DNA of 64,000 bases from assembly GCA_016285135.1 (NCBI GenBank), contig JAEEQC010000002.1, positions 515-64,514 of the forward strand. The letters run 5' to 3'. This stretch comes from Lachnospiraceae bacterium (GTDB lineage Bacteria > Bacillota > Clostridia > Lachnospirales > Lachnospiraceae). This document shows, piece by piece, positions 10,646 through 26,587 of this stretch. Below the pieces are notes generated by a model. That model saw nothing but the letters and a program-made list of their open reading frames with translations, did not search any database and was not told the origin of the DNA. Position 1 is the stretch's first letter; the number at the start of each line of letters is the position of its first letter. Position numbers and translations under genes: made by a program.

Positions 10646-11407
10646 TCAGACAAGATTTCCGACAAATGATAACCTGTGTATGGGCGTAAGACCGTACTTC
10701 TTTATGGCTTCGATATGCTGTGCGGTTCCGTAGCCTTTGTGCTTTGCAAATCCGTATTCGGGATACTGCGCATCATACTCGTCCATAATGCGGTCCCTGG
10801 TAACCTTGGCAAGGATACTTGCGGCCGCTATTGAAACACTTTTGGCATCTCCGCCCGTGATCCCTACCTGTTTTATATCAATATCGGGTATTATAACGAA
10901 ATCATTAAGTAAAATATCAGGCTTGACGGTGAGTCCGGCTATCGCTTTACGCATGGCCTCATAAGTGGCCTGAAGGATGTTGATCTCGTCGATCCGTTTG
11001 GAATCTGACATACCGACCGACCATGCAAGCGCTTTCTCTTTTATCTCATCAAAAAGCTCGTCTCTTTTCTTTGGTGAGAGTTTTTTTGAATCATTAAGGT
11101 AAAGGATCTCGCAGTCTTTTCTGAGTATTACGGCTCCTGCACACACGGGACCGGCGAGCGGTCCTCTGCCGGCTTCGTCGACACCGCATATAAATTCAAA
11201 TTCATTGTATTTGTGCTCGAAGAATCTCATCTCTTCGATCCTTGCTCGCTCAGCTTGAAGCTTGGCAATACGGTTCTCGGCCGATGCTATGATCTTTTGA
11301 ACGCCGTCCCTTTTATCGTCGGTATAAGCGGCGATCAGATCGCTCAGTTTCTCTGGCGGGCAAGCCGCAAATTCGGCTTTAACGGTTGAGATCTTTTTTT
11401 CTTCCAT
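10646..11407 (-). CDS. rnhB: Ribonuclease HII
   Basis: Catalytic motif CGVDEAGRGPLAGPV, later DSKKLS and ASILAKVTRD, 253 aa. Confidence 0.9.
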   Translation of the reverse strand: MEEKKISTVKAEFAACPPEKLSDLIAAYTDDKRDGVQKIIASAENRIAKLQAERARIEEMRFFEHKYNEFEFICGVDEAGRGPLAGPVCAGAVILRKDCEILYLNDSKKLSPKKRDELFDEIKEKALAWSVGMSDSKRIDEINILQATYEAMRKAIAGLTVKPDILLNDFVIIPDIDIKQVGITGGDAKSVSIAAASILAKVTRDRIMDEYDAQYPEYGFAKHKGYGTAQHIEAIKKYGLTPIHRLSFVGNLV

Positions 11408-11459
11408 GATCTGTCCTTTTATTATCTGTTAAATAAGTTTTTAAGCCTTTTGAGCTCTG

Positions 11460-12302
11460 TCATTCAAGAGTGATCCGTCCGAGTCTCGAAGATCGGAAAT
11501 CATCGATTATAAGCTTTGAGGCTTTAAGAATGTCGGGCTGACCTCCGGGAGCCAAAGCTCCGCGTGCTATTGCAATTGATTCGACAATCTTGTTTATATC
11601 CTCGGGGCAATCTTCGGAATCTTTAAAGTACCTGTTCTTAAGGCTCTCCGGGTATCGGTCTTTGAGCACTCCGATAAGATAATAGCAAAGCTCTTCGGGA
11701 TACAGGATATCGTCGTTTATGGAGCCGATGAAAGCAATCTTCATGCCGATCTGCTGGTCCTCGAACTTGGGCCAGAGAAGTCCGGGAGTATCTAACAGCT
11801 CGACTTGTCTGTTAAGTCTGATCCACTGTCTGCCCTTCGTAACACCCGGCTTGTTGCCTGTCTTTGCACACGCTTTTCCTGCAATCGAGTTGATAAAGGT
11901 CGATTTTCCGCAGTTAGGGATCCCGGCAACCATCGCTCTGATAGGACGACCGATGATACCGCGTGCTCTGTCACGTTTAATCTTTTCTTCGCAGGCTTTT
12001 GTAATGATATCGAGACTGCCTTTTACTCCGGCACTGCTTCTCGAATCGCAGGTGTTAACGAAGAAACCTTTGTCCTCGTAATACTTTTTGTAATATGCAG
12101 TCCTTTCGGGATCCGCAAGGTCACTTTTGTTAAGGATTATCACTCTGTACTTGTTCCTGGCGAGAGTGTCGATGTCGGGGTTTTTGCTCGAAAGTGGGAT
12201 CCTGGCATCAAGGATCTCAACAACGGCGTCGATTACCTTAAGATCCTCTTCCATCTGTCTTTTGGCCTTGCTCATATGGCCCGGATACCATTGATATACC
12301 AT
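11460..12302 (-). CDS. rbgA: Ribosome biogenesis GTPase A (YlqF/RbgA), circularly permuted GTPase
   Basis: WYPGHMSKAKRQ start, permuted order NKSDL ... GIPNCGKSTFIN ... DTPG. Confidence 0.9.
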   Translation of the reverse strand: MVYQWYPGHMSKAKRQMEEDLKVIDAVVEILDARIPLSSKNPDIDTLARNKYRVIILNKSDLADPERTAYYKKYYEDKGFFVNTCDSRSSAGVKGSLDIITKACEEKIKRDRARGIIGRPIRAMVAGIPNCGKSTFINSIAGKACAKTGNKPGVTKGRQWIRLNRQVELLDTPGLLWPKFEDQQIGMKIAFIGSINDDILYPEELCYYLIGVLKDRYPESLKNRYFKDSEDCPEDINKIVESIAIARGALAPGGQPDILKASKLIIDDFRSSRLGRITLE

Positions 12303-12306
12303 GAGA

Positions 12307-12948
12307 TTACTCCTCTTGTTCTGCTTTTTCTTTAAGATTGAGCTTGCTGATGATCGAGAAAGGCGAAAGCCTGATAACAGCTTCTCCGATGATCTCTTCG
12401 CGTGTCACATTACCGAAGTTGAAATAGCGGCTGTCTTCGCAGTCGTTTCGGTTGTCTCCGAGGACAAAGTACTCGTCGTCATCGAGGATTACCTCTTCTT
12501 CGTAGAGACCCGAGGTGATCATGGGCTCAACGTTTATGGGCTCTTCTATCATGGTTCCGTTTATAAACACGGCACCGTCCCTGACCTGTACAGTGTCACC
12601 GGGAAGCCCGTAAATACGCCTTGTGGCGTAGACCCTGTGTTCTTTGCCCGATTTGTTGAAAACGATGATATCGAATCGTTCCGGATCAGAAAAAAGGTAG
12701 GCCATTCTGTTGACTATCAGGATATCGTCATCTGAAAGAGTCGGTTCCATACCGCTTCCGACCATGTTGGTCTTTTCGAGTGCGACAACAGTAAACAGAT
12801 AACCGAGAACGATCGCACCGCAAACACACACCATCCAGATCGCGATCCTGATGATGAGCTTTATGATCTTGCTTTTTTTCTCTTGTTTATCAAAATCAAA
12901 ACTAAATTCGGTGTCCATTTCGTCGTCCCCCGAGAACCATTTTATCAA
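12307..12948 (-). CDS. lepB: Signal peptidase I (S26)
   Basis: TM anchor IAIWMVCVCGAIVLGYLFTVVAL, Ser motif GSGMEPTL, RIYGLPGD, GDNRNDCEDSRYF. Confidence 0.88.
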   Translation of the reverse strand: MIKWFSGDDEMDTEFSFDFDKQEKKSKIIKLIIRIAIWMVCVCGAIVLGYLFTVVALEKTNMVGSGMEPTLSDDDILIVNRMAYLFSDPERFDIIVFNKSGKEHRVYATRRIYGLPGDTVQVRDGAVFINGTMIEEPINVEPMITSGLYEEEVILDDDEYFVLGDNRNDCEDSRYFNFGNVTREEIIGEAVIRLSPFSIISKLNLKEKAEQEE

Positions 12949-13551: not shown

Positions 13552-14217
13552 TTATTTGGAAATCAGCACATGATAATGATACGACGAATGCCCATGTCCG
13601 AACTGCTCATAGAAGTTCTCTACGTGATACACAGTTTCGACCGTAAAATCCTTCATGAGTTCGTAGATCCCGTCATAATCAGCGAAGTAATGAGGCACTC
13701 CGTACTCGGGTCCTTCGTTCATGCAGATCTTTGTGTTCGGGTCGATAAGCGGCCAGTCCGTGTTCTTAAAACCGTGAGTCGATTTGGAAGCGAGGGACAG
13801 GTAGCACTCTCCGCCTTTTCGTAAAACACGGTGGATTTCAGAGACGGCTTTTTTTACACCCTCTGTATCTGTATGCTGGATAACGTTACGACAGAATATC
13901 GAATCAAAGGATGAATCCTCAAAGGGAAGCGCGAGCATGTCTCCGGTTTTGCCGTGGATAGTCAGCCCTTCCTTTTTTGCCCATTCAAGTGTGTGATCTA
14001 CAGCGTCATCCATCAGATCGAAAGCATAAACATTAAAGCCGGCTTTCGCGAACTGGATACTGTGTCGTCCCATCCCGCATCCGAGATCGAGAAAGTCGTG
14101 ATAGCCCTTCTTTGTCCATCGGTCAAGCAGATAATAGCTTTCGATCGAGGGCTCGATCCAGATCTTCTTTTCGCTTTCGGGAACATTGTTCCAGTCCCAA
14201 CCCTTTGATTCTACCAT
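13552..14217 (-). CDS. Class I SAM-dependent methyltransferase
   Basis: Motif I DFLDLGCGMGRHSIQFAKAGFNVYAFDL, post-I and motif II-like FDSIFCRNVIQH. Start chosen at MVESKGWDW (ATG 14217, GGAGGT 5 nt upstream); the track ORF extends to 14253. Confidence 0.8.
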   Translation of the reverse strand: MVESKGWDWNNVPESEKKIWIEPSIESYYLLDRWTKKGYHDFLDLGCGMGRHSIQFAKAGFNVYAFDLMDDAVDHTLEWAKKEGLTIHGKTGDMLALPFEDSSFDSIFCRNVIQHTDTEGVKKAVSEIHRVLRKGGECYLSLASKSTHGFKNTDWPLIDPNTKICMNEGPEYGVPHYFADYDGIYELMKDFTVETVYHVENFYEQFGHGHSSYHYHVLISK

Positions 14218-14271
14218 ACATGACCTCCGGAAATAGTTTCTGTGAAATACCAAGGTATAAGCATTAAATAT

Positions 14272-14302
14272 TTGCGCACCCCCATTTTATGAGGATGCGC
14301 AA
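14272..14302 (-). terminator. Weak hairpin / possible terminator after hydF
   Basis: 7-bp stem ttgcgca / tgcgcaa with a 17-nt loop, followed on the minus strand by ATATTTA. The T-run is poor. Confidence 0.35.
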
Positions 14303-14344: not shown

Positions 14345-15598
14345 TCATCCGAATATCTTATCATGCAGCGTCGGGAAAATCCTGAGCGTCCTCTCGAGTG
14401 TACCCGAAGCCATCGCGAGCGTGATACCGTAGTTTGTAAACGGAATATTGTATTCCTGTGCTTTCCCGAGTCTGTAGGCAACCTCTTTGTCATTTACCAT
14501 GCAGGCTCCGCAATGAACGAGCATGCTGTACGCGGAAAGATCTTCAGGGAAGCCCTGACCGCTCGTATATTCGTAGTTAAAGTCCTTTCCTGTAAGCTTT
14601 TTGATCGCTTTCGGAAGTTTAACTGTTCCGATATCGTTGCACTGCCTGTGATGAGTACATCCTTCGCAGACAAGGATCTTTGCTCCGTCGTGAAGGTCTT
14701 TCGCGGCATTTATACCGAGAGCTGCTTCCTCAAGGAATCCTTTGTATCGTGCAAACAGTATCGAGAATGTGGTGAGCGGTACTTCGTCGGGGACGATATC
14801 CTTTATCTGCATAAGAGCCTGCGAATCGGTTATAACGATCGTGGGTGCGGCTTTAAGGCTGTCGAGAGTGTCTTTAAGACCGACATCCGTGGTTACAACT
14901 GCTGTAATGCCGTATTCGATCGTCTCTCTGATGGTGTGCGCCTGAGGAAGGATCATCCTGTCCTTGGGAGCCGACTCGTCTATCGGACAAACGAGCACGG
15001 CAACATCGCCCTTTTTAAGGATATCGACAACGACTTTGGCATCTTTCTTGACATCGGGGAGCAGTCCGGCGATCGCGATCTTAAGGTCCGTTATGCCTTT
15101 TGTACTTGTGGCGCTCACAAAAACACGGGGGATCGATTTGATCTCCATGAGCGAAGCTATCTCATCGAGCTTTTTGCCGAGAGCCACCCTGTCGTCACCG
15201 TTGCAAAGATCTTCTTTGTTGAAAACAACGATAAAAGGTGTCTTGCTTCCGATGAGGATACGAATGAGCTCTTCGTCGGAAATGGTTATACCGCTTGAAG
15301 CATCGATAACAATAACGCCTATATCGGTGTTCGTCATTGTCCTCTTTGTCCTGGCAACTCGCTTCTCTCCAAGTTCGCTGTCGTCGTCGAAACCGGGAGT
15401 ATCGTAGAGTACAACAGGTCCGAGAGGAAGGATCTCCATCGATTTGCCGACGGGATCGGTAGTCGTGCCCTTAATCTCTGAGACAAGCGCTACTTCCTGA
15501 CCGGTTATAGCGTTTACAAGGCTTGATTTACCGGCATTTGTATTGCCGAGAAATGATATTTTGGTCCTTGCTGCCGAAGAAGTGTCGTTTAAACTCAT
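14345..15598 (-). CDS. hydF: [FeFe]-hydrogenase H-cluster maturation GTPase HydF
   Basis: N-terminal GTPase LGNTNAGKSSLVNAITGQ ... DTPGFDD ... NKEDL. C-terminal cluster-binding signature CEGCTHHRQC ... (about 50 aa) ... HCGACM, i.e. the CxH...HCxxC pattern of HydF. Strong RBS AAGGAG. Confidence 0.85.
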   Translation of the reverse strand: MSLNDTSSAARTKISFLGNTNAGKSSLVNAITGQEVALVSEIKGTTTDPVGKSMEILPLGPVVLYDTPGFDDDSELGEKRVARTKRTMTNTDIGVIVIDASSGITISDEELIRILIGSKTPFIVVFNKEDLCNGDDRVALGKKLDEIASLMEIKSIPRVFVSATSTKGITDLKIAIAGLLPDVKKDAKVVVDILKKGDVAVLVCPIDESAPKDRMILPQAHTIRETIEYGITAVVTTDVGLKDTLDSLKAAPTIVITDSQALMQIKDIVPDEVPLTTFSILFARYKGFLEEAALGINAAKDLHDGAKILVCEGCTHHRQCNDIGTVKLPKAIKKLTGKDFNYEYTSGQGFPEDLSAYSMLVHCGACMVNDKEVAYRLGKAQEYNIPFTNYGITLAMASGTLERTLRIFPTLHDKIFG

Positions 15599-15688: not shown

Positions 15689-16810
15689 TTAAATGTTCAC
15701 ATTACCTGCAGCTTTGCTGGGTTCAAATATTGAACGGGCTTCGTCCTCGGTTATTGTTACACCGAATATCTCTTTATAGTATGATACAGTTTCGGCTATG
15801 ATGTCAATGTCTTCGAAGAGCGAAGGATAAATAGTTTTCGCCATCCATTTCAAAGTTACGGGTGTATCGATTCCGGGAGTGTAAGAACGATACATACCGA
15901 GTGGCATCTTGAACACTCTCTTGTTCTTTACTGCATCGATCTGCGACCAGTCATAGTTACCGACAGTGTTGTTGTAAAGATCGTCGGGATAGGACTTGTT
16001 AAAGTTTGTGATAAGGATAGTGTCGGGATTCCACTTGTAGATCTGCTCGAGTGTTACGGGAACAGAATTGTCCTTTTCAAGTTCTTCGGCAACATTTTTC
16101 GCACCGGCTACGGTTGCCCACCACTGTCCGAAGAAGTTCTTTCCCGAAGAAACGATCGATGAATCACTGTACTGGAAGAGAACAAACACACGTGCTTTTT
16201 CTTCGTCGGTGAGTTTTCCTACTCTGCTGTTAATGAGATCAAGAGATTCTTTGCTGTATTTGTCAACAAGCTCTCTTCTGTTTGTTGCTTCGTCGGGGAA
16301 GATCGCTTCCAGTACTTCAAGCCAGTGATCAAGCGTCTCAATACAGTCGTAATTCCACTTGTTTACTGACAGAGCTACAGCCGTAAGACCTGCGTTTCTG
16401 AGCTTTTCACCGAGTGCGGGCGTCGATGCGCTGTAGATGACAAGGTCGGGTTGTTGCTTTAAGAGCTCTTCTATATTGACATCATCTCCGTCAACAGCCG
16501 ATGTATCAACCTTTAAGAGCTCGGGATAAAGCTTTCCGAGAAGTGAATTCTGTGCTGCCGTCATGCTTGCGGGTGCCATCTCCACGATCTTTTCGGCGGA
16601 ATTAAAGAACACGCAAAGTACCGAAGGAATGGGGAATATGTTTGTAACAGCGATACGTTTTATTTCTTTGGGAACTTTTACCTCGATATCGAGGTGATCC
16701 TTAACGATCCTGTAATCGGACGAATCCGACTCCTTTGATGTGCCGGTGCAAGCACACAGACATGATACCGTAAGTGCAAGGACTAACAGTAAAGCTACGA
16801 TTTTTTTCAT
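15689..16810 (-). CDS. ABC transporter substrate-binding lipoprotein (siderophore/cobalamin/heme-type, periplasmic binding protein class 2)
   Basis: Lipoprotein signal MKKIVALLLVLALTVSCLCAC with AAGGAG RBS at the ATG at 16810. Overall layout (RIAVTNIFP ... DLVIYSAS ... ILITNF) resembles FecB/BtuF-type binding proteins. The track N-terminal extension (to 16909) is rejected. Confidence 0.8.
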   Translation of the reverse strand: MKKIVALLLVLALTVSCLCACTGTSKESDSSDYRIVKDHLDIEVKVPKEIKRIAVTNIFPIPSVLCVFFNSAEKIVEMAPASMTAAQNSLLGKLYPELLKVDTSAVDGDDVNIEELLKQQPDLVIYSASTPALGEKLRNAGLTAVALSVNKWNYDCIETLDHWLEVLEAIFPDEATNRRELVDKYSKESLDLINSRVGKLTDEEKARVFVLFQYSDSSIVSSGKNFFGQWWATVAGAKNVAEELEKDNSVPVTLEQIYKWNPDTILITNFNKSYPDDLYNNTVGNYDWSQIDAVKNKRVFKMPLGMYRSYTPGIDTPVTLKWMAKTIYPSLFEDIDIIAETVSYYKEIFGVTITEDEARSIFEPSKAAGNVNI

Positions 16811-16911
16811 TGTTTCTGACTCCTTAAAAATATATTTCAACTTCTTGATAAACATGTTGATACAGACCCTTGATGGCCATGGTCCGGGGGGACGGGGGTA
16901 ATGGACCATAT

Positions 16912-18042
16912 TTACATGATACGTCCCGAGTAAGCCCTGTGATGCACTTTAATAAGCTCGGCATCTTCAGGGCAGACGAATCTGTAAAGACCGTCCGCGT
17001 AAACAGTTTTGCATTTCGACAGTTCGTCTTCTATCTCGGTTTCGCTTGTCGTCATAATGTCTCCGTCGCTTAAAAGCGCTTCGATATTCGGACTGTCGAC
17101 TATGGGTGATATTACTCTTACATTGCCTTTAACGCTTATGTTACCTGTGTCGTCATTTGACAAAACCGCATTCTTCTCCATCGCAAGGCTTCTTGCGGCT
17201 ACGGGTTCGCCGATAACAACGGTGACGGCGTCTCTGTCCGAAACAAATCCGTCAAAAACGCTTATGCATTTCTTTTCTTTGACCGCATTCTTTAGTGCCG
17301 ATGCGACAGCGCTGTCTGTCACGGGTCCGCAAGGAAGTCCGATGACATAAGGGATTCCGAACTGTTCAAAAAGATACTTCGCAGTGTCGATACCTGTTAC
17401 CGAAACCACAAGAGAAACTTCCGCACTCGAAGCTTTGGCAAGATCTTCAAATCGTCCTTTCATCGACCAGGAAGAAATAACATTAAGACCGCATCCCTCT
17501 ATAACGGCCTTAACATGCTCGTATTGCTCGTCTTCGAGGTCGAGGGGTGTTGCACCCAGGATGTTTACTCCTCCCTTTACAGACGGATTGGGAGCGTTGC
17601 AGAAGCGTTTTGCAAGTGCAAGCAAAGCCATGCTCGCACCGATCTCGTATGACTTCATTCCGCTCACATCGAAACCGAACGAAGGTATTCCTGTTTTTTC
17701 TTCGATTTCTGCAGCTGTCAGATCGATATCGCTTCCTGTCATCCACGGTATGGGAGTTGAAGCTATAGCTGTGAAATTCGGCTTAAAATGTTCTGCGGCT
17801 TCAATCATGTCGGCTGCCAGCCTGTCACCTGCCGTGCCCATAACCGCTTCTTCCTCGGTAACAGCAGAAACGAACACAAGTCCGTCGTCTCCGTACCAGC
17901 GGGGTTCGTCATGCGTAGTGAATGTCGAGTTACATCCCGATGCATCATGCATGACAAGCAGTCCGCCGAGTCCGTAAAGCGCACTGATCACACCGAATGT
18001 ATCCGATGAATATGTGGAAAGTACTTTTCTTGCCTGATTCAT
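16912..18042 (-). CDS. Nitrogenase component-1-like oxidoreductase subunit (NifK/NifN/BchB-like)
   Basis: MHDASGCNSTFTTHDEPRW and VFVSAVTEEEAVMGT resemble the Cys/loop regions of the oxidoreductase/nitrogenase component 1 family. The ATG at 18042 overlaps the upstream TGA as ATGA; an alternative start lies at 18063. Confidence 0.7.
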   Translation of the reverse strand: MNQARKVLSTYSSDTFGVISALYGLGGLLVMHDASGCNSTFTTHDEPRWYGDDGLVFVSAVTEEEAVMGTAGDRLAADMIEAAEHFKPNFTAIASTPIPWMTGSDIDLTAAEIEEKTGIPSFGFDVSGMKSYEIGASMALLALAKRFCNAPNPSVKGGVNILGATPLDLEDEQYEHVKAVIEGCGLNVISSWSMKGRFEDLAKASSAEVSLVVSVTGIDTAKYLFEQFGIPYVIGLPCGPVTDSAVASALKNAVKEKKCISVFDGFVSDRDAVTVVIGEPVAARSLAMEKNAVLSNDDTGNISVKGNVRVISPIVDSPNIEALLSDGDIMTTSETEIEDELSKCKTVYADGLYRFVCPEDAELIKVHHRAYSGRIM

Positions 18043-19292
18043 ATGCAGCTCTCGCACCCCCATCCTTTGATATCAAGTGTCTTTTTGAGGTCTTTAACGT
18101 TAAGAAACGCGTCCGTCATCATCCTCGATAGTTCTACGATCCCGTCAAATCCGTAAAGAGGACCGTTCTCGACCATATCGACGAAATACCCGGTCTGAGT
18201 AAAGTACGCGGCCTTTTGTCCGAGCGCAAGAATTTTGACCGTATCATCCGGTGTAAATGTCCTCATCTCGGGACTGACACACTTTTCAAACCTGATTCCT
18301 TTTACATGTTTTTCAAGCCATTCGTAATCGGCCTCTTCTCCACCGACCGAATCGGAAAAAACTGTAACCACATTGAATCCGTGCTCCGCAAGGAGTCTTG
18401 CAAGTGAATAAGGACGTGTTGTGATCATACCGTCCACCGCAATTTCACAGTTTCCTATCACATCGTGTGCTTTACGAAGAGCCTCATCCGCACGGGCCTT
18501 ATCAGCCTCGAAAGTGTCGTAGGTTGTTCCGATCTCTTTGGCAAGTTTTTCAAGATTATCTCTGATCTCTTCGTATCCGAAGGAAAAAGGAATCTGAAGA
18601 CTCTTTATACCGAGCTTTTCCGCCAGCTCATCAGCTGCGTCTTTTGCTACGGAAAGGTTTGATATTATAAGTCCGGCGGACCCAAGCTTTTTGTAGTCGC
18701 TGTAATTATCGATGGCGGGCAGTTCGAGAAGCCTCTTTCCGGCTTTTTTTATAAGCGTTTTGATCTCGCTTGTTTCTGATACAGCAAAGCAATTACCGCA
18801 AAGCAGTACATCTCTGTCGTCTGTTTTAAGCGGCTTTATGGCAGCATAAAGTCGCTTTCGCATCATCTTGTCCGGATTTAAGGTGCTCTTGCGCATCGTG
18901 GGCGTCATATAGCAGTCTACAAAGTCAACATCCGGAAAACGCTCGTTCAAGATCCTGAAGCAGTCATCAAGATCGGTACCCATGAAATGATGTATACAGC
19001 TCGTGTATATGAGCACGCAGGGCGGTCTCTTCTTTAACCTGTTCAGGATATCCGTAACGCCCTCAACAAGAAGCTCTTCCATATCTCCGTCGGTTACATT
19101 GTGCTCTTCTATCGCAACTGTCGAAAACCTGTCTGTCAGGTTCATCTCGGCTGCGGAAAGAACTACGCCCCGCAGACACCCTGCAGCACAGACAAATATC
19201 TCATGAGCTTCGGGCACAAGCATTCCGACATGTACTATCGTCCAGCCGCCTCGCGCGGGAACACTGTATTCAAGTCCTGTTTGTTTCAGCAT
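18039..19292 (-). CDS. Nitrogenase component-1-like oxidoreductase subunit (NifD/NifE/BchN-like)
   Basis: FVCAAGCLRGVVLSAAE, LIYTSCIHHFMGTD and DCYMTPT have a component 1 family look. 417 aa, ending in GWGCESCI. Confidence 0.7.
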   Translation of the reverse strand: MLKQTGLEYSVPARGGWTIVHVGMLVPEAHEIFVCAAGCLRGVVLSAAEMNLTDRFSTVAIEEHNVTDGDMEELLVEGVTDILNRLKKRPPCVLIYTSCIHHFMGTDLDDCFRILNERFPDVDFVDCYMTPTMRKSTLNPDKMMRKRLYAAIKPLKTDDRDVLLCGNCFAVSETSEIKTLIKKAGKRLLELPAIDNYSDYKKLGSAGLIISNLSVAKDAADELAEKLGIKSLQIPFSFGYEEIRDNLEKLAKEIGTTYDTFEADKARADEALRKAHDVIGNCEIAVDGMITTRPYSLARLLAEHGFNVVTVFSDSVGGEEADYEWLEKHVKGIRFEKCVSPEMRTFTPDDTVKILALGQKAAYFTQTGYFVDMVENGPLYGFDGIVELSRMMTDAFLNVKDLKKTLDIKGWGCESCI

Positions 19293-19355
19293 TTTTCAAC
19301 CTCTGTAAGTTCTTTGATCAGTTTATCTTTTACGTTGATTATCCGTGCTTTTTAC

Positions 19356-19384
19356 ATTATATGTTTATTGCAATATTATGTTAA
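19356..19384 (-). promoter_or_regulatory. Putative internal promoter ahead of the NifD-like gene
   Basis: Minus strand reads TTAACA, a 17-nt spacer, then TATAAT, inside the 119-nt AT-rich gap between the NifH-like and NifD-like genes. Confidence 0.45.
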
Positions 19385-19411
19385 TTTCATACGGATACGC
19401 ATTTAAGGATC

Positions 19412-20161
19412 TTATGCTTCTTCAAGTATTTTCAGTGCCAGATCCTTATATGCAAGAGCTTCGGGGCTGTCCGGAAAAGCTTCGGCGACTGTTTTCCCCT
19501 TCTCTGCGGCTTTTGCGATAAGAGGACTGTGTTCTATGATCCCTGTGATCCTTGTATTGAAATCTTCGGCAAGCTCCTCAACCTTTTCAAGCTCCCTCTC
19601 TACATCACGTTTGTTGAGGATTATTCCGCCGAGCTTTGCGTATCCGCGACCGTGGAAACTGTCAACAGCCATGGCGATATTGGCTGCTGCATGAATGGCC
19701 ATGTTTTCACCTGAGGTTATCACATATACCGAATCGGCATAACCGCCTCTCATCGGCATCGTAAATCCTCCGCAGACAACGTCTCCGAGAACATCATAGA
19801 AAACAACATCAGGCTTATAGACGTCATAAGCACCTTTCTCGGCAAGCTTGTCGAAAGCGATAATTATCCCGCGTCCTGCACATCCTGTTCCGGGCTTGGG
19901 GCCCCCTGCTTCGACACACAGAGTCCCCGCAAAGCCTTCGGTCACCATTTCGCTCAGAGCGATGTTGTTCCCTTTTTCGCGTGAAAGGTCGAGGATAGTG
20001 CCTTCTATAGCTCCTCCCCGAAGGAGCGATGTTGAGTCCGCTTTGGGATCACAGCCGATCTGCATGACTTTCTTACCGCACAAAGCGAGTGCGGCAGCCA
20101 TGTTGGCAACTGTAGTCGATTTTCCGATTCCGCCTTTACCGTAGATAGCAATTTTCTTCAT
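19412..20161 (-). CDS. NifH/BchL/CfbC-family ATP-dependent reductase (nitrogenase iron-protein-like)
   Basis: P-loop IYGKGGIGKSTT, switch I CDPKADST, first cluster Cys CVEAGGPKPGTGCAGRGI, second cluster Cys YDVLGDVVCGGFTMPMR. 249 aa, shorter than NifH. Confidence 0.88.
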   Translation of the reverse strand: MKKIAIYGKGGIGKSTTVANMAAALALCGKKVMQIGCDPKADSTSLLRGGAIEGTILDLSREKGNNIALSEMVTEGFAGTLCVEAGGPKPGTGCAGRGIIIAFDKLAEKGAYDVYKPDVVFYDVLGDVVCGGFTMPMRGGYADSVYVITSGENMAIHAAANIAMAVDSFHGRGYAKLGGIILNKRDVERELEKVEELAEDFNTRITGIIEHSPLIAKAAEKGKTVAEAFPDSPEALAYKDLALKILEEA

Positions 20162-20188
20162 TCCGGTCCCTTCCTTATTCGTTTTAAC

Positions 20189-20983
20189 CTATTGTTCGCT
20201 TCGTTTTACGGGGATTATGTCCGTATATACACCGGCCGGTCCGTTTATGGTACCGATGACCGCATCTACCCCGTAAAATCTTCTCATATTTTCTTCTGTA
20301 ATGACGTTTTTGATGTCGTCATAGACATATGATCCGTCCATCGCGATCATAAGCGCCTTATCGGCCCAGCGTACCGCATTGCCCGGGAAATGAGTGTTAA
20401 AAATGCATGTTATCCCGTCTTTTGACAGCCTGTCTATTGTTTCAAGAACAAGAAGCTGGTTCTGATAATCGAGGTTTGCTTCGGGCTCATCAAGGATCAT
20501 GACCTTGGGATCGTTTACAATAGCCCGGGCAATGAGCACCATCTGGTACTGACCGCCGCTAAGGGCCATGCAGCTTTTGTTTGCGATACCCGTGAGTCCC
20601 ATTTTCTCAATGACTTTTTCCGCAGCTTCTTTATCGGTCTTTCCGGGAAGCGAAAAGATTGAGATATTGCCGGCTCTTCCCATAAGTATCATGTCGTAGA
20701 CGCTGATATCGGGCGGCAGGACTCTCTTCTGCGGTACATACGATAGCACTTTAAATAGCTTCTCGCTGCTTTGGGAACTGATGTCCGTGCCGTCTATCGT
20801 CGCAGTTCCTTTATCCCACTTAAGGAACCCGCACAGACAGCGAAGGAGTGTCGTCTTCCCTGCCCCGTTCTGACCCATGATCGCAAGCTTTTCTCCCGAT
20901 TGCAGATCGAAGGAAATATCCGAAAGCAGGGGTTCGCCTTTTTTATCGTATGAAAAATAGCCGTGTTCTACAGTGAGTCTCAT
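20189..20983 (-). CDS. ABC transporter ATP-binding protein (FecE/BtuD-like)
   Basis: Walker A GQNGAGKTTLL, signature LSGGQYQ, Walker B VMILDEPEANLD. The start overlaps the permease stop by 4 nt. Confidence 0.9.
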   Translation of the reverse strand: MRLTVEHGYFSYDKKGEPLLSDISFDLQSGEKLAIMGQNGAGKTTLLRCLCGFLKWDKGTATIDGTDISSQSSEKLFKVLSYVPQKRVLPPDISVYDMILMGRAGNISIFSLPGKTDKEAAEKVIEKMGLTGIANKSCMALSGGQYQMVLIARAIVNDPKVMILDEPEANLDYQNQLLVLETIDRLSKDGITCIFNTHFPGNAVRWADKALMIAMDGSYVYDDIKNVITEENMRRFYGVDAVIGTINGPAGVYTDIIPVKRSEQ

Positions 20984-22008
20984 ATGTTCTTGCCCCCTTT
21001 CCTTCTGAGCATCAGAATAAAGAAAGGTGCTCCGATGATCGCTGTGAGCACTGATATCGGGATCTCTTTTGGTGATATGGTCCTCGCAATTGTATCAACG
21101 ATCATCATAAAGCCGGCTCCGACGCTTATCGATGAGGGGATGAGCTTTACATTATTACTTCCGAAAAGCATCCTGCAAAAATGAGGAACGATAAGGCCGA
21201 CCCATCCCACCTGACCGCACATCGAAACACATGAGGCTGTGATCATTGTAGCTCCGACGATGCAGACCACGCGAAGGCGTTTGATGTTTACGCCCATGCT
21301 ACGTGCTTCGTCCTCATCGAGAGGCAAAAGATTGGTTCTGTATCTGATGAGGAAAAAGAACAAGAGACAAATGATTATCGGCGGTGCTCCAAGTGCCAAT
21401 GTACCGTATCCGGCAGAATCCATGCCTCCGAGGAGCCAGTAGGTGATCGCGGGAAGCTGCGATTCCGTATCGGCAGTGAATTTGACGAGTGAGATCAGTG
21501 CCGAGAACAGCGAACCGACCATGATACCTGCAAGTACCATGTTGATCCTGCCTTCGGGAGCAGCTTTTCCGAAAAGTGCCGTGATAACGACTGCGAGTAT
21601 TCCGAAAGCCACGGCGAGAAGCTGGATCCCGGTCATGTTAAATCCGAGAAGCATTGCGAGAACCGCTCCGAAACCGGACCCCGAAGCAACTCCGAGTGTG
21701 TCGGGTGTAGCAAGGGGATTCGAAAAGAGACCCTGAAAGATCGCGCCGCTCACTGCCAGACCCGCGCCGGCCAGAGCCGCCAAAAGGAGTCTCGGAAGTC
21801 GCATAGATCGAACGACCACATCGTTCATTCCTGCCGCTTCCTGTCCGGAAAACAGTCTGCCGATCGCACCGAATACATCATCAAGACCGATACCGATACG
21901 TCCGACAGCCAGTCCGATGATAAGCACAACAAAAGGGAACAATATAAGCAAGACCTTCGATACGATACCGGGTCTGTCCTTTACATAAGCTTTAATCTTT
22001 TCAGCCAT
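20980..22008 (-). CDS. FecCD/BtuC-family ABC permease
   Basis: RLPRLLLAALAGAGLAVSGAIFQGLFSNPLATPDTLGVASGSGFGAV is the hallmark FecCD region. Polytopic, 342 aa. Confidence 0.9.
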   Translation of the reverse strand: MAEKIKAYVKDRPGIVSKVLLILFPFVVLIIGLAVGRIGIGLDDVFGAIGRLFSGQEAAGMNDVVVRSMRLPRLLLAALAGAGLAVSGAIFQGLFSNPLATPDTLGVASGSGFGAVLAMLLGFNMTGIQLLAVAFGILAVVITALFGKAAPEGRINMVLAGIMVGSLFSALISLVKFTADTESQLPAITYWLLGGMDSAGYGTLALGAPPIIICLLFFFLIRYRTNLLPLDEDEARSMGVNIKRLRVVCIVGATMITASCVSMCGQVGWVGLIVPHFCRMLFGSNNVKLIPSSISVGAGFMMIVDTIARTISPKEIPISVLTAIIGAPFFILMLRRKGGKNI

Positions 22009-22204: not shown

Positions 22205-22450
22205 TCATGCCTTTTGATATGTGGCTTTGCAGGTAACGCCTTTAAGTCTTCCTATCGCGCCTGTCAGGGCATTGATCCTGTCCGAAGGTGCTACAACAGC
22301 AATCGCGATAATGTTGATACTTTTCTGAGGATACGGGATCCCCATTCTTCCGATCACATATTTGGCATACTCATGGAGAAGGCTGTTGAGCTCTTCCACG
22401 CTGTCAGGCTCCTCAACGATTATGCTGATCACGGCAACTCTGTCTTCCAT
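22205..22450 (-). CDS. Small ACT/NikR-C-like protein of the TM1266 family (putative iron-only hydrogenase system regulator)
   Basis: 81 aa; VAVISIIVEEPDSVEELNSLLHEYAKYVIGRMGIPY ... INALTGAIGRLKGV matches my memory of the TM1266/TIGR03959 pattern. Needs HMM confirmation. Confidence 0.6.
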   Translation of the reverse strand: MEDRVAVISIIVEEPDSVEELNSLLHEYAKYVIGRMGIPYPQKSINIIAIAVVAPSDRINALTGAIGRLKGVTCKATYQKA

Positions 22451-22511: not shown

Positions 22512-22537
22512 AGGAGCATCGGTTTCACGATGCTCCT
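22512..22537 (-). terminator. Hairpin terminator downstream of the GH43 gene
   Basis: Perfect 10-bp stem aggagcatcg / cgatgctcct with a 6-nt loop. It is followed on the minus strand by GTTTCCTTTGTTTC. Confidence 0.6.
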
Positions 22538-22618
22538 TTAATATACTATTGCTTTTCTGTTTTGTAAAGCGTTCTGTGATCTTATTCTTTGCTTGCGAAG
22601 ATTGTTTTTTTTATTTGT

Positions 22619-24040
22619 TTATTTGCAGAATACAAACTTATCGATCTTGCAGAGCTCTCTGTTATCGAACGCATATGCCATCCAGTTCTTGCGTCCCGTC
22701 TCAACTCTGAAGTAAAGATCGTGTTTGCCGGATGTCGGAGGTATGATCACTTCGAGAACCGTGCTCACAGGTGAGATCTCGGCCTTTGCAACAGGCTCTG
22801 AGTCGGGGCTGTCAAAGTAGATGTTTATGATACCCTTCTGACCTACACCGATCTGATTGATCATGAGCTTCAAGTGATTACCGCACTCGTTTTCACCGAA
22901 ATCAAATGTTTTGAACCCGATAACACTGCCGCCGCAAATATTGGAGATCGGTCTTGTAAACACATCGAGTTCTGTGATGAACGCACCGCCCGTGAGTACA
23001 CATGCGGACTCTGCATATGTAACCTCAAAAGGTCTTAAGGAATCTGCAAATCCTCCGTGCGAAGTCATCTGTGCTTCAATGAAGGAACCGTCGGGATTCC
23101 TGAAGATCTTCTCCACACAGCCTTTTCTCGACATGATCGTGCCGTTCGTCATCTTGTGGTAGAAAATGTACCATTGATCCTTGATCTTGCAAAGAGAACC
23201 GTGGTCGTTTCCGCCCGGGAAATCCTTACCGCTGTCGATCAGCACACCCTTGTACTCAAAAGGTCCCATGGGGCTATTGGATGTTGCATAAACAAGCTGA
23301 GGACAGTTGCGGCTTGAATATATGAGATAATAAACTCCGTCGATCTTACGGGGTGAGCATGCCTCGAAGAACCTGAAAGGAGTAGCTACGGGGATGATGT
23401 CTTTCTTATAGGTGCCGGGGATGACAGTCCTCATGTCACTTGCGTCAAGCTCAACAACAAAGGAATGGAGGTATCCGCAGTAGCAATATACTCTTCCGTC
23501 ATCGTCAACAAGTACACCGGGGTCGATGAAGATCCTTTCTGTCATATCTTTTATAGCGATCTCCCACTCAGTGCCCTGCTCCTCGTCTTTCTCAACATTG
23601 GGACGTACGGGATGGGGGATGTCGAACTCTTCTCTGTGCTCTTCCATATACTTGAGCTGTGCGCTTGTATCGTACTGTCCGAGAGTCTTAAAAGGTCCTT
23701 CGGGTCTGTCGCTTACCGCAACGCATCCATAAGCGCCTTCTATATAGCAGAAAAGGTAATACTTGCCGTCCTTGCAGACAACATCCGGAGCAAAGATATG
23801 ATTGTTTGTCCAGGGTGTCTCGCTTTTGTGATCGCTGTCGTCACATGTATGGAACATATCACCGTGACATACCCAGTGCTCAAGATCGTCAACAGATGCC
23901 GACCATACTTTCATCTTGGTATCACAGAAATATTCTTCATGGGGTTTGTCGTGTGAGCCGTAGATGTAGACTCTGTCTCCGAAAACATGGGGTTCTCCGT
24001 CGGGGATATACTCCCAGCCCGGAAGGTAAGGATTAGGCAT
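22619..24040 (-). CDS. Glycoside hydrolase family 43-like (beta-xylosidase/arabinofuranosidase type) with C-terminal beta-sandwich domain
   Basis: N-terminus MPNPYLPGWEYIPDGEPHVFGDRVYIYGSHD, later FAPDVVCKDGKYYLF, DPGVLVDDDGRVY and EACSPRKIDGVYYLIYS (five-bladed propeller catalytic contexts). No signal peptide. Confidence 0.75.
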   Translation of the reverse strand: MPNPYLPGWEYIPDGEPHVFGDRVYIYGSHDKPHEEYFCDTKMKVWSASVDDLEHWVCHGDMFHTCDDSDHKSETPWTNNHIFAPDVVCKDGKYYLFCYIEGAYGCVAVSDRPEGPFKTLGQYDTSAQLKYMEEHREEFDIPHPVRPNVEKDEEQGTEWEIAIKDMTERIFIDPGVLVDDDGRVYCYCGYLHSFVVELDASDMRTVIPGTYKKDIIPVATPFRFFEACSPRKIDGVYYLIYSSRNCPQLVYATSNSPMGPFEYKGVLIDSGKDFPGGNDHGSLCKIKDQWYIFYHKMTNGTIMSRKGCVEKIFRNPDGSFIEAQMTSHGGFADSLRPFEVTYAESACVLTGGAFITELDVFTRPISNICGGSVIGFKTFDFGENECGNHLKLMINQIGVGQKGIINIYFDSPDSEPVAKAEISPVSTVLEVIIPPTSGKHDLYFRVETGRKNWMAYAFDNRELCKIDKFVFCK

Positions 24041-24129
24041 AAATAACCTCCTGCGATTAAATTAATTGCTATGTTTCAGGTGTCCTCAAGCAAAAGAAGG
24101 ATCACGCTGATTAGAATTCTCACTCACTA

Positions 24130-24168
24130 TAATAACAAAACGGTCGGAATAATCCAACCGTTTTGTTG
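24130..24168 (-). terminator. Rho-independent terminator after the GH5 gene
   Basis: 11-bp stem aacaaaacggt / accgttttgtt (24135-24145 and 24158-24168). The T-rich 3' arm and tail lie on the minus strand. Confidence 0.65.
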
Positions 24169-24193
24169 CTTATCTAATGCTTATATTTTGACA

Positions 24194-25237
24194 TCAAAGA
24201 TACTTTATCAGTTCGTCTCTTACTCCGTCGAGTCTCTCGTCTATGATACCGAAATGCATTTGTTTGTACGACCATGCCGCTCTCCCTACATTGATCTCTT
24301 CAAACGCATCGTGGATCGCCTTGAACCAGAAGAGCTCGTCCTCGGGATCAGTATACATGATGCAGCCGTACTCACCACAGTAAAGCGGTACATTAAGCTT
24401 CTCGGCGAGTGCTACAGCCGAAGAAAAGCTGGCTGTGAAGTAATCCTTTCCGAATACCGGACTGTCCGATCCGCCGGGTACAAGGATACGGTTTGCTGCG
24501 ACCCAATCCGGGAAATCATTTGCGAATTCCTTATTGATCTGCTCGTATGTCTTGTTCTTAATCGAGTACCTGTAATCCCTGGGCATCTCGCTGATCCAGT
24601 TGGCTCCCTGATGAGTGAAGATAAGCGGATCGTAGCAGTGGAATGTGTAAATGATATGATCGTCAAGCTGTATATCTAGATCGTTCAGTGACATATAGCT
24701 GTTGTTCCAGTAGCTTCCCACAACAATATCAGTCTCGGTCGTGATCTTTCTGATACGTCCGATGCAGATACGTGCGATCCTGTTCCATCTGTCGCTGTAT
24801 GACTGCTCCGTGATCTCATTAAGAAGTTCAAATGCAACTCTTCCGGACAGATGCCCAAAACGTTTAGCAATCTCCTCCCACAGCCTGTAGAAACGATCCT
24901 GAAGATCGGCTTCATCAAAGAAGCCATACTCTCCGTAGCCCAAGTCAAAAGAAAAGCCGTATACTCTGTGAAGGTCAAGGATCACATTAAGACCATACTT
25001 AAAGCAAAGAGAAATAGCATCCTCTAGGCGCTTAAAGCCGCTCTCACGATAATTACCCTTCTGGTCTTCAAGAAGATGGTAATCAAAAGGAATCCTCACA
25101 TGGTCAATACCCCATTTGGAGAAGATCTTAAAATCATCCTCCGTTATAAAGGTATCATACGTCTTTTCGGTATGGTCGTTTTGAGCGAACCAGCCTCCCA
25201 GATCGATACCCTTCTTGTAACCCTTCCAATCTCTCAT
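24194..25237 (-). CDS. Glycoside hydrolase family 5 (cellulase/mannanase-type)
   Basis: HVRIPFDY, acid/base context VAFELLNEI, nucleophile context LYCGEYGC. 347 aa, no signal peptide. Confidence 0.8.
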   Translation of the reverse strand: MRDWKGYKKGIDLGGWFAQNDHTEKTYDTFITEDDFKIFSKWGIDHVRIPFDYHLLEDQKGNYRESGFKRLEDAISLCFKYGLNVILDLHRVYGFSFDLGYGEYGFFDEADLQDRFYRLWEEIAKRFGHLSGRVAFELLNEITEQSYSDRWNRIARICIGRIRKITTETDIVVGSYWNNSYMSLNDLDIQLDDHIIYTFHCYDPLIFTHQGANWISEMPRDYRYSIKNKTYEQINKEFANDFPDWVAANRILVPGGSDSPVFGKDYFTASFSSAVALAEKLNVPLYCGEYGCIMYTDPEDELFWFKAIHDAFEEINVGRAAWSYKQMHFGIIDERLDGVRDELIKYL

Positions 25238-25300: not shown

Positions 25301-26056
25301 TTATTGTCTGTCGGAGTTATTATCATTACTGTTTATTTTCAGCAAAAAATTATGATCATTTTTTGTCAGTTCAGCTTTTTCCAAAAGATCGGGTCTGAGC
25401 CTTGCTGTTCTTTCAAGGGACTGTTCCCTGCGCCATTTTGCTATATTGGCGTGATGACCCGAAAGAAGTACTTCGGGAACGCTCATGCCCATAAAAACCT
25501 CGGGCCTTGTGTACTGCGGATATTCCAAAAGATTGCCTTCAAAGCTTTCTTCGCTTGCCGACTGATCGTTGGTGAGCACTCCGGGAACCATCCTTGAAAC
25601 AGCATCCATGATGACGACTGCGGGAAGCTCCCCACCTGTCAGTACAAAATCACCTAGCGATATCGCGTCATCGGCTTCGAGTACGATCACTCTCTCATCG
25701 ATACCTTCGTAGTGTCCGCACAAAAAGATCAGATCGTCATATTCAGCAAGTTCTTTTGCAATACTCTGGTCAAACTTCCTGCCCGAAGGAGTCATATATA
25801 TGATCCTTCCTTTTTTGTCACTGCAAAGGCTTCTTGCGTGTTCACATGCACGGTAAACGGGATCTGCCATCATAACCATTCCTGCACCGCCGCCATACGG
25901 ATAATCATCGACATGCAGATGTTTGTCTTGCGAAAAATCTCTGATATCGATAACATTTAGGTTTATAATTCCTCCCGATATTGCACGACCCGTAATGCTT
26001 GTGTTCATACATTCGCGAATCATGTCGGGAAATAGTGACAAAACTACAAAGTTCAT
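25301..26056 (-). CDS. trmD: tRNA (guanine37-N1)-methyltransferase
   Basis: VLSLFPDM ... HVDDYPYGGGAGMVM ... LICGHYEGIDERV ... SLGDFVLTGGELPA. Confidence 0.95.
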   Translation of the reverse strand: MNFVVLSLFPDMIRECMNTSITGRAISGGIINLNVIDIRDFSQDKHLHVDDYPYGGGAGMVMMADPVYRACEHARSLCSDKKGRIIYMTPSGRKFDQSIAKELAEYDDLIFLCGHYEGIDERVIVLEADDAISLGDFVLTGGELPAVVIMDAVSRMVPGVLTNDQSASEESFEGNLLEYPQYTRPEVFMGMSVPEVLLSGHHANIAKWRREQSLERTARLRPDLLEKAELTKNDHNFLLKINSNDNNSDRQ

Positions 26057-26080
26057 AAACCCTTCTCCTAATGTGAACTA

Positions 26081-26587
26081 TTATATCATACCTTTCAACA
26101 AATGAACAACAATGTTTTTTGAATTCAAATCAATTGATAAAACGCATTCTTTTGTTGATGGAATAAGGAGCTCTTTGCCGTTGTCTCTCTTAACGACATA
26201 GACATCATTAGCACATGATGTAAGTACATCCTCGAGTGTTCCCAAAACCGTTCCGTCATCATTTGTAACGGTAAATCCTAAAATGTCACATATATAATAC
26301 TCGTCCTCGCCTAGCGGCAGGGCGTCTTCTCTCTCTATCAAAATATCGGCCGATCTGTACTTTTCGGCCTGTGTTCTGTCTTCAATCCCACTGAGCGTCG
26401 CGATAACCATGTTCTTAAAGAACTTGATCCCGCCGATCTCCATCTCTTTCTGCTCTTTGTGCGTATCTATGATGACCTTTTTGAGCTTTTTGAAACGTTC
26501 GGGGTCATCTGTAGTGGGAAATATTTTAACTTCCCCTCGAATTCCGTGTGGCGATGTTATAACACCGACTCTTAATCTGTCTTCCAT
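26081..26587 (-). CDS. rimM: 16S rRNA processing protein RimM
   Basis: VGVITSPHGIRGEVKIFPTTDDPERF, PRC-barrel C-terminus, conserved position upstream of trmD. Confidence 0.9.
   Translation of the reverse strand: MEDRLRVGVITSPHGIRGEVKIFPTTDDPERFKKLKKVIIDTHKEQKEMEIGGIKFFKNMVIATLSGIEDRTQAEKYRSADILIEREDALPLGEDEYYICDILGFTVTNDDGTVLGTLEDVLTSCANDVYVVKRDNGKELLIPSTKECVLSIDLNSKNIVVHLLKGMI

Follow-up and report, generated by a model that had tools for sequence, protein, structure and literature searches.

Nitrogenase-like genes encoded with a FecCD-type importer and hydrogenase maturation genes in a Lachnospiraceae bacterium

The DNA analysed here, called the window throughout, is a 64,000-nucleotide stretch of a Lachnospiraceae bacterium genome (assembly GCA_016285135.1, contig JAEEQC010000002.1, positions 515 to 64,514, forward strand). 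Its minus strand encodes three nitrogenase-like proteins, NflH (NifH-like), NflD1 (D) and NflK1 (K), whose family is called NFL-1. The same operon carries a FecCD-family permease, an ATP-binding cassette (ABC) ATPase and a Peripla_BP_2 protein, which together form a type II importer set. These six genes had been recognized in the initial annotation, and all were found on the minus strand at the coordinates given there, each with a Pfam match (Table 1). The annotation had limited the unit to these six genes, and this extent was too short. It missed a TM1266-like gene and hydF in the window, and hydE, which is present in most relatives. The unit runs on the minus strand from roughly 22.5 kb to 14.27 kb in the order TM1266-like, permease, ATPase, NifH-like, D, K, binding lipoprotein and hydF, and it is counted as nine genes.

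The genes from 22450 to 14345 are tightly spaced or overlapping, and they are followed by a terminator-like hairpin (14302-14272) that is probably the end of the transcription unit. The permease and ATPase genes overlap by 4 nt. Spacing is 196 nt between the TM1266-like and permease genes, 27 nt between the ATPase and NifH-like genes, 119 nt between the NifH-like and D genes, and 90 nt between the binding-protein gene and hydF. The stop codon of D and the start codon of K share ATGA if K begins at its eighth codon (ATG 18042), and with this start the junctions described initially (4-nt overlap, 27-nt gap and ATGA) all hold. Judged from the sequence, K most likely begins at that codon, because homologues cover 98% of the longer open reading frame (ORF). 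The binding lipoprotein most likely begins at ATG 16810, which has an AAGGAG site 9 nt upstream and gives a product with a lipobox. The earlier gene coordinates therefore stand apart from these two starts, and of the component-1 sizes first reported (417 and 383 aa), that of D is correct and that of K is likely 376 aa.

Table 1. Genes and sequence features of the nitrogenase-like operon, by position in the window.
Feature	Position	Strand	Evidence	Product (aa)	Remark
Candidate promoter	22540-22568	minus	TTTACA, 17 nt, TATATT; 10/12 positions in consensus scan		weak evidence
Inverted repeat	22512-22537	minus	perfect 10-nt arms AGGAGCATCG / CGATGCTCCT, 6-nt spacer		followed by T-rich run
TM1266-like gene	22205-22450	minus	PF21699, 99.8 bits (cut-off 27)	81	first gene of unit
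Permease	20980-22008	minus	PF01032 FecCD, 276.7 bits	342	
ATPase	20189-20983	minus	Pfam ABC_tran, 126 bits	264	
NifH-like (NflH)	19412-20161	minus	Pfam Fer4_NifH, 292.6 bits	249	
D-like (NflD1)	18039-19292	minus	PF00148 Oxidored_nitro, 81.5 bits	417	
K-like (NflK1)	16912-18042 (likely gene)	minus	PF00148 Oxidored_nitro, 95.2 bits	376	ORF 16912-18063
Binding lipoprotein	15689-16810 (likely gene)	minus	PF01497 Peripla_BP_2, 62 bits	373	ORF 15689-16909
hydF	14345-15598	minus	TIGR03918, 484 bits (cut-off 326)	417	last gene of unit
Terminator-like hairpin	14272-14302	minus	14 bp stem, 7 pairs G-C		42 nt past hydF stop

NflH aligned over its full length to NifH of Clostridium pasteurianum (1cp2, 245 bits), with switch I and switch II kept; the P-loop and both cluster cysteines reported in the initial annotation are also present in this alignment. 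Across 61 NifH-like family members, conservation is at least 90% at the P-loop, the switch regions and the two [4Fe-4S] cysteines. By motif criteria, NflH is an intact NifH-type electron donor. Its NCBIfam scores were 311.5 bits for NifH (TIGR01287; cut-off 394), 298 for CfbC (402), 183 for BchL (345) and 167 for BchX (331).

Scores of D and K against curated models were far under the cut-offs. D scored 35.4, 24.7 and 18.8 bits with the nitrogenase models alt_nitrog_alph, N2-ase-Ialpha and VNFD, and K scored 36.6 with NifD and 35.8 with N2-ase-Ialpha (cut-offs 486-823). With the NifE model (cut-off 505), D scored 39 and K 52 bits, and other models gave 35-40 (BchN; cut-offs 324-420), 46 (BchB; 490), 26 (BchY; 425) and 19.9 bits (CfbD, TIGR03282; 268). 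The best curated model reached 40 bits for D and 52 bits for K (cut-offs 268-654), and none of NflH, D and K reached a curated equivalog cut-off in NCBIfam. Against PDB sequences, the top match was NifE for D (E = 0.04 as a single sequence, 1.4e-5 as a family profile) and NifE/NifEN for K (1.2e-11 and 9e-22). The D profile matched MarD (9d9u/9fmg) at E = 0.0027, and Foldseek identity to MarD and MarK was 14-16%. The AlphaFold model of D (predicted local distance difference test score, pLDDT, 91; below 50 in tail residues 415-417) has the three-domain component-1 fold and lies at about equal distance from NifK, NifN, NifE, BchN, MarD and MarK in Foldseek (TM-score 0.6-0.7, identity 10-18%). Membership in a characterized clade was rejected by the NCBIfam cut-offs, the PDB sequence and profile searches and Foldseek, and the family is placed outside the Nif, DPOR, CfbCD and Mar clades, as the initial annotation had supposed. 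The labels D and K were taken from gene order and ligand pattern because both proteins are equidistant from alpha and beta chains by similarity; by ligand pattern, D is alpha/NifE/BchN-like.

Cysteine conservation was read from alignments of 84 D and 50 K homologues. D keeps C35, C39 and C99, as well as C127 and a C-terminal pair (C413/C416), and K keeps one cysteine, in an HDASGC motif. C99 of D aligns to a cluster cysteine of NifE ("NTC" motif), and the HDASGC motif of K aligns to HGAQGC of the NifN half in fused NifEN (9i0g). Across the D and K alignments, the third domain had no conserved cysteine, and no histidine was conserved close to the C-terminus. Three cysteines from D and one from K would fit a single inter-subunit [4Fe-4S] cluster, not a P-cluster plus iron-molybdenum cofactor (FeMo-co); the comparison of cluster ligands suggested initially returned a pattern like that of DPOR or NifEN. 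The C-terminal pair sits on a flexible tail and is found in 72 of 76 NFL-1 D proteins. The window holds no second Nif-like D or K gene. Since it has no further D/K paralogue and its only radical S-adenosylmethionine (SAM) gene is of the DUF512 type, no nifB-, nifE- or nifN-like gene is present, in agreement with the first reading.

Close homologues share the N-terminus of D, which ruled out a selenocysteine codon or a frameshift as the reason for its length of 417 rather than about 440 aa. Other homologues are longer through an internal insertion or an N-terminal extension. The NifH-D gap (19293-19411, minus strand) is AT-rich and has an 11/12 promoter-like match at 19384-19356. Most relatives have coding sequence here, since a 22-aa N-terminal extension of D overlaps or abuts the NifH gene; the clade of the window has lost this extension.

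HydF from the window has HydF_dimer and HydF_tetramer domains, and its GTPase motifs and CxH...HCxxC cluster motif are intact. The motif residues are kept in 37 cluster-linked HydF proteins. The TIGR03918 score, domains and motifs identify this protein as the H-cluster maturation GTPase and scaffold of [FeFe] hydrogenases. Searches by tblastn and motif scans of the rest of the 64-kb window found no genes for HydE, HydG, HydA or Hyp proteins. The TM1266-like protein matches PDB 2nzc (TM1266, E = 1e-9) and, weakly, NikR_C, and PF21699 carries the label "putative iron-only hydrogenase system regulator." With a fold like that of the NikR C-terminal domain, it is probably a ligand sensor. In most relatives the ABC ATPase is longer (363-366 aa) and ends in a fused PF21699 domain, and the shorter ATPase of the window has a separate TM1266-like gene instead.

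The permease had its top NCBIfam matches with BtuC, F420-0, FecC and FecD permeases, all under cut-off. No substrate-specific equivalog cut-off was reached by the importer. In the PDB, the class III binding protein matched 4ovk, a structural-genomics protein (2e-43), MolA/HI_1472 (molybdate/tungstate, 7e-18), the Ni-complex binders 4ino and 4ls3, TM0189, and putative iron(III) binders, and it is weakly similar to the heme binder IsdE (49 bits). Any small metal complex is conceivable as the cargo.

Relatives of D were sought in a scan of one genome per species, which gave at least 582 matching stretches, and the nearest 80 loci were analysed. Neighbour counts refer to loci with enough flank among these best 80. 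Nearly all are from Clostridia of guts and rumens, and cultured species include Intestinibacter bartlettii, Clostridium luticellarii and Loigolactobacillus rennini. The NifH-like gene is adjacent in 73 of 74 loci and K in 74 of 74. Importer genes are also constant neighbours, occurring with the family in about 90% of the nearest loci (binding protein 64/70, ATPase 55/61, permease 51/58). The FecCD-importer linkage on which the initial annotation was built therefore holds across genomes, and it extends to a sister family at ~30% identity. The TM1266-like domain occurs in 59 of 64 loci (92%), HydE is adjacent in 45 of 65 (69%), and HydF is encoded after the binding-protein gene in 40 of 57 (70%). 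HydE and HydF of the relatives are clear equivalogs (515 bits with TIGR03956 and 540 bits with TIGR03918). All eight neighbour types occur together in 24 of 48 full-length loci. The arrangement recurs in most of the 80 loci, which come from different species, and this is far beyond chance.

At least five gene orders hold the set together. With tm for TM1266-like, perm for permease, atp for ATPase and sbp for binding protein, the window has tm-perm-atp-H-D-K-sbp-hydF. Relatives have perm-atp/tm-hydE-H-D-K-sbp-hydF, hydE-tm-perm-atp/tm-H-D-K-sbp-hydF, H-D-K-sbp-perm-atp-hydF (L054), and hydE-H-D-K-hydF, in which genes overlap and the transporter is absent. All-against-all clustering of neighbours in the 80 loci gave no conserved families beyond eight or nine genes, no HydG or HydA, and no tetrapyrrole biosynthesis genes. 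A neighbour of 440-500 aa considered as HydG was ruled out by its sequence, which is that of a multi-pass membrane protein, and several further neighbour "families" were spurious opposite-strand ORFs. No NifB-like gene was found in the window or the 80 loci. In Loigolactobacillus rennini DSM 20253 (L037:5380-10811, Lactobacillaceae), the order is H-D-K-sbp-hydF. After hydF, this genome has a 260-aa gene, a THEP1-type nucleoside triphosphatase, a small helix-turn-helix protein and a second FecCD importer, which comes with a DUF364/DUF4213 "heavy-metal chelation" protein.

NFL-1 is also found beside Hyp genes. In C. luticellarii, NFL-1 lies directly after hypF-hypC-hypD-hypE, and a second nitrogenase-like set, NFL-2, lies before the hyp genes. 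This flanking arrangement is also present in C. drakei (complete genome), in C. ragsdalei P11 and on a metagenome contig that holds a TM1266-like gene as well, and an Anaerovoracaceae genome has hypC-hypD-hypE-TM1266like-D-K. The 10-11 gene clusters of this type are at L071:188-12375, L085:9243-20231, L087:9243-20264 and L086:5735-17003. Their D1 (42-45%) and K1 (40%) identities to the window proteins are in the normal family range, and they are scattered across a rough neighbour-joining tree of D1. NFL-2 has its own NifH-like gene, and its D proteins are 66-87% identical across genera. PMC9431212 lists no hypCDEF genes other than the NFL-flanked set for C. drakei and C. ragsdalei (Tables 1 and 4), both of which have [NiFe] hydrogenases, and HydE, HydF and HydG of C. 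drakei (Table 3) are placed elsewhere in the genome. One orthologous nitrogenase-like family is thus repeatedly found beside either of two unrelated Fe(CO)(CN)-building machineries, Hyd and Hyp. A DUF362-ferredoxin gene lies upstream of the C. luticellarii cluster, and a FUR gene adjoins that of C. drakei.

The sister family, with D ~30% identical, forms H-D-K-sbp-FecCD-ATPase clusters (L090:7240-13441, L091:3459-9660) with no TM1266-like domain and no maturase within 8 kb. The C-terminal cysteine pair is missing in D of the three members read, and for two of these three the contig shows no maturase gene. In L090, a gene for a DtxR-type iron repressor is found 5 kb upstream of the cluster. In NFL-1, the older link between nitrogenase-like proteins and importer is joined by the cysteine tail, the TM1266-like sensor and the maturase neighbours.

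The ties to HydE/HydF and to HypFCDE, together with the transporter-free operons, shift the likely role from reduction of a tetrapyrrole or chelate to metallocofactor assembly. We tentatively favour a reading in which NFL-1 assists assembly of the hydrogenase Fe(CO)(CN) cofactors as an ATP-driven accessory of the NifH/NifEN type, fed by a metal-complex importer. From the gene anatomy, the ligand pattern and the genomic associations, we infer a path from import to hand-off. The importer would take up a metal complex, most likely an iron chelate, and NflH, with ATP, would drive low-potential electrons into the predicted [4Fe-4S] cluster of NflDK. NflDK would hold or reductively process the bound iron species; its part would be that of a reductive scaffold or processing stage in building the metallocofactor, rather than that of a metabolic reductase. 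The cysteine tail of D might then pass iron, or an iron fragment, to HydE/HydF, or to HypCD in other genomes. The TM1266-like protein, or the ATPase-fused domain, may sense a pathway ligand and throttle import or expression. Dos Santos et al. (2012; PMC3464626) independently put forward the same idea on the basis of Coprococcus catus and further Firmicutes.

Several observations weigh against this reading. About 30% of loci have no adjacent hydE or hydF, and the Intestinibacter bartlettii locus has neither; because the 80 loci are the nearest of at least 582, neighbour percentages are not a family census. The sister family keeps the importer without a nearby maturase, so the older association is that of nitrogenase-like proteins with the importer. 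There is no Fur box near the operon, and the neighbourhood may reflect co-regulation and not a shared pathway. To our knowledge, Escherichia coli has no such nitrogenase-like genes. Defined in-vitro [FeFe] maturation needs HydE, HydF, HydG, H-protein components and NfuA (PMC12501116). Both hydrogenase cofactors can assemble without a nitrogenase-like protein, so the role of NFL-1 can be only accessory or lineage-specific.

Import and ATP-dependent reduction of a metal chelate or tetrapyrrole-like molecule, as in DPOR, COR and CfbCD, is somewhat unlikely as a function unrelated to maturation. It would serve cofactor salvage or metal extraction, for example by removing iron from heme or from a highly stable chelate, with the maturases nearby as iron users or by co-regulation. 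The importer linkage in the nearest loci, its persistence in the sister family away from maturases, and a single [4Fe-4S] ligand pattern like that of enzymes reducing a bound tetrapyrrole directly are all expected under this explanation, and the IsdE similarity of the binding protein, the FUR gene in C. drakei and the DtxR-type gene near the sister cluster also agree with it. It does not account for the hydE-H-D-K-hydF operons and HypFCDE-linked clusters that have no transporter, for genes interleaved with hydE and hydF in several orders, or for fusion of the importer ATPase to the TM1266-like domain, which is otherwise a Hyd-system marker. The lack of nearby tetrapyrrole genes, riboswitches and a Fur box also counts against it, and the nearest named solved binding proteins take molybdate/tungstate or Ni complexes, not tetrapyrroles. 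The initial annotation had proposed uptake plus ATP-dependent reduction; its importer link stands, and its tetrapyrrole target finds no support in the maturase ties, the transporter-free operons, the riboswitch search or the binding-protein matches.

A bolder version of the maturation role, which we consider rather unlikely, is that NFL-1 represents a third, ATP-driven class of hydrogenase maturase common to the clostridial [FeFe] and [NiFe] lines, performing a very low-potential reductive step on an iron-carbonyl/cyanide precursor. Candidate steps are anaerobic formation of the CO ligand, reduction of Fe(II) to Fe(I), and conversion of cyanide-derived carbon to the azadithiolate bridge. If this is true, the importer may salvage exogenous iron complexes into HydF, possibly organometallic fragments from other H2-producing gut microbes.

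Two further explanations are each improbable. In one, NflHDK makes or tailors a cofactor ligand through ATP-driven reduction of a small molecule, either CO2 to CO or cyanide or thiocyanate-derived carbon towards the CH2-NH-CH2 bridge of the H-cluster. Nitrogenases, and NifH itself, reduce CO2 and HCN, and the family is linked to the cyanide makers HypE/HypF as well as to HydE/HydF. A nitrogenase-type small-molecule site is unlikely, because there are no complex-cluster ligands and no NifB-like partner, and the importer is left unexplained. In C. drakei, CO and CN for [FeFe] hydrogenase would already be provided, because HydG is present alongside NFL-1 (PMC9431212, Table 3); the idea that NFL-1 bypasses HydG is likewise weakened.

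In the other, NflDK is a client: HydE/HydF or HypCDEF would provide this novel enzyme with an organometallic iron cofactor, with which it would reduce an imported substrate, NflH being the ATP-driven donor. NFL-1 is the constant element while the adjoining maturases vary between Hyd and Hyp, D has the extra conserved cysteines C127 and the C-terminal pair, and the Hyp-linked clusters hold two nitrogenase-like sets, which recalls the structural/scaffold pairing of nifDK and nifEN. The adjoining HydE and HydF score as ordinary equivalogs. We know of no precedent for such a client. The maturases already have normal clients, because the NFL-flanked hypCDEF genes are the only set listed for the [NiFe]-bearing C. 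drakei and C. ragsdalei. A genuine minimal N2-fixing nitrogenase can practically be dismissed: NflH is as NifH-like as many real Fe proteins (311 bits with TIGR01287, 245 bits with 1cp2), but D and K are far under the family cut-offs and short (417 and 376 aa), only 3+1 cysteines are conserved with no FeMo-co ligand equivalents, and nifB, nifE and nifN are absent from the window.

H2 turnover by [FeFe] and [NiFe] hydrogenases drives gut and rumen fermentation and gas fermentation by industrial acetogens. The accessory role in cofactor assembly that we favour touches the question of how hydrogenase cofactors are supplied with iron and low-potential electrons and, in the [NiFe] enzymes of anaerobes, with CO as a ligand. 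If NFL-1 has a maturation role, this would be a new function in the nitrogenase superfamily (assembly of a non-nitrogenase cofactor) and a new component of hydrogenase biogenesis, which would matter for hydrogenase expression in other hosts. If it only imports and reduces, its substrate would be a new class for nitrogenase-like enzymes. NFL-1 can be tested by knock-outs in existing model acetogens.

Regulatory features of the operon were also examined. No Rfam-type riboswitch or leader RNA was found upstream of the operon at the gathering or a permissive threshold, and no Fur box lies near it; eight window-wide matches with up to three mismatches are at chance level. The promoter at 22540-22568 is a candidate only, because the region has 21 promoter-like sites against 14.6 expected. 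The inverted repeat at 22512-22537 is located in the GH43/TM1266-like intergenic region, and its arms are kept 5' of the TM1266-like gene in the related loci L003 and L004. It could serve either to terminate GH43 transcription or as an operator or leader hairpin for the operon.

The G+C content of the operon equals that of its flanks, which hold housekeeping-type genes (ORFs 10646-12948 and 25301-28750, judged by translation), the DUF512 radical-SAM gene and glycoside hydrolases; for these reasons the operon is not evidently a recent island. Exact protein matches assign the window to a Lachnospiraceae bacterium of rumen type. GH43 and GH5 (cellulase family) genes lie directly upstream (22619-25237, minus strand), and GH43 genes also adjoin the cluster in L002-L004, L060 and L082-L084, which is probably lineage synteny and not a functional link. 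Just beyond the hydF terminator is a SAM-dependent methyltransferase gene (13552-14253, minus strand), whose best NCBIfam match, far under cut-off, is the N-terminal part of the selenoprotein methyltransferase MduS. It is probably outside the unit because it is kept only in the three closest relatives (L002-L004).

Elsewhere in the window, the segment 30000-40000 has low G+C (0.35-0.42 vs. ~0.46). Two of its large products (503 and 522 aa) are without a Pfam match; also encoded are a GntR regulator, an ABC ATPase, a CHASE2-adenylate/guanylate cyclase and an AP_endonuc_2-GAF-HD protein. At 40311-41321 (minus strand), PF14057 identifies a full-length member of the GGGtGRT family (645 bits). In 48000-56000, AT skew turns from negative to positive at ~48-50 kb and G+C is ~0.50 at 52-56 kb, which suggests a coding-strand change or a differently composed segment.

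Among known systems, the Hyd set of Thermotoga maritima (HydE, HydF, HydG and TM1266) shares HydF with the window, and HydE and the TM1266-like protein with the window or related loci at family-level scores. It differs in that neither HydG nor HydA was found in the window or within 10 kb of the related loci, and nitrogenase-like genes or an importer are not known as working parts of any described Hyd cluster. Type II importers (BtuCDF, HmuTUV, FecBCDE, MolBC-A and CeuE/FecDE) likewise consist of a FecCD permease, a matching ATPase and a Peripla_BP_2 lipoprotein; here no equivalog cut-off is reached, and the ATPase of relatives bears a C-terminal TM1266-like domain. MetN and ModC carry regulatory C-terminal domains, which the fusion recalls, although the domain family differs.

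Other nitrogenase-like systems are further from NFL-1 in context. Mar (MarBHDK) and Isr (IsrBHDK) also act outside N2 fixation and are sometimes beside ABC transporters. Mar has a P-cluster and an L-like cluster made by MarB or NifB, and both Mar and Isr occur in sulfur-metabolism contexts (review PMC13474568). NFL-1 has no B-type radical-SAM partner and does not have the full six P-cluster cysteines; Isr was compared by context only. Group VI nitrogenase-like proteins of Elusimicrobia have radical-SAM, B12-binding or HemN_C suites nearby, and their NifH is sister to group V (Meheust et al., 2020). Identity with group VI was rejected on gene context and NifH affinities (311 and 298 bits for NifH and CfbC vs. 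183 for BchL). DPOR (BchL/BchN/BchB) and CfbCD have an ATP-driven NifH-like donor, as NFL-1 does, and a simple interface [4Fe-4S] cluster with no complex cluster, as predicted for NFL-1. Unlike them, NFL-1 scores 20-46 bits with the BchN, BchB and CfbD models (cut-offs 268-490) and has no tetrapyrrole genes nearby, and it has two distinct subunits where CfbD is a homodimer.

NifH with NifEN pairs a NifH-type ATPase with an alpha/beta pair that holds one inter-subunit [4Fe-4S] cluster through 3+1 cysteines, an arrangement that the conserved cysteines of NFL-1 would fit. Both systems are encoded among cofactor-assembly genes, and NifE/NifEN is the best sequence match for K and among the best for D. 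The differences are large: 39-52 bits against a NifE cut-off of 505, 10-18% identity to fold matches, no NifB, a cysteine tail on D, and partners that are HydE/HydF or HypFCDE and an importer in place of nif genes.

The closest description is that of the "NifHEN-like" clade by Dos Santos et al. (2012; PMC3464626), which comprises Firmicutes and archaea and in which two cysteines are found in the D/E-like and one in the K/N-like subunit. Its members include Coprococcus catus GD/7, Dorea longicatena, Dhaf_1539/1540 and Mlab_1039/1040. One sentence of that paper links the clade to ABC transporters and hydrogenase maturation proteins, so the arrangement, which the initial annotation had thought undescribed, had been noted in both its links. 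NFL-1 agrees with the paper's description in cysteine pattern, in both links and in the two linked nitrogenase-like copies of some genomes, a match by description. Full-text literature searches returned this paper as the sole prior mention of the family and no functional study of it. A 2026 Chemical Reviews survey of nitrogenase-like systems covers only sulfur and tetrapyrrole contexts and leaves NFL-1 unmentioned, and the literature leads "Spice," Heliophilum, methyltransferase clusters, C. thermocellum and ammonia-lyases were irrelevant. NFL-1 is thus a family seen earlier and never characterized. HydE, HydF, the TM1266-like fusion, the binding protein and the cysteine tail are not described in the 2012 paper. 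New here are the full nine-gene anatomy, the TM1266-like/ATPase fusion, the cysteine tail, the transporter-free hydE-H-D-K-hydF operons, and the dual link of one orthologous family to Hyd and Hyp maturases.

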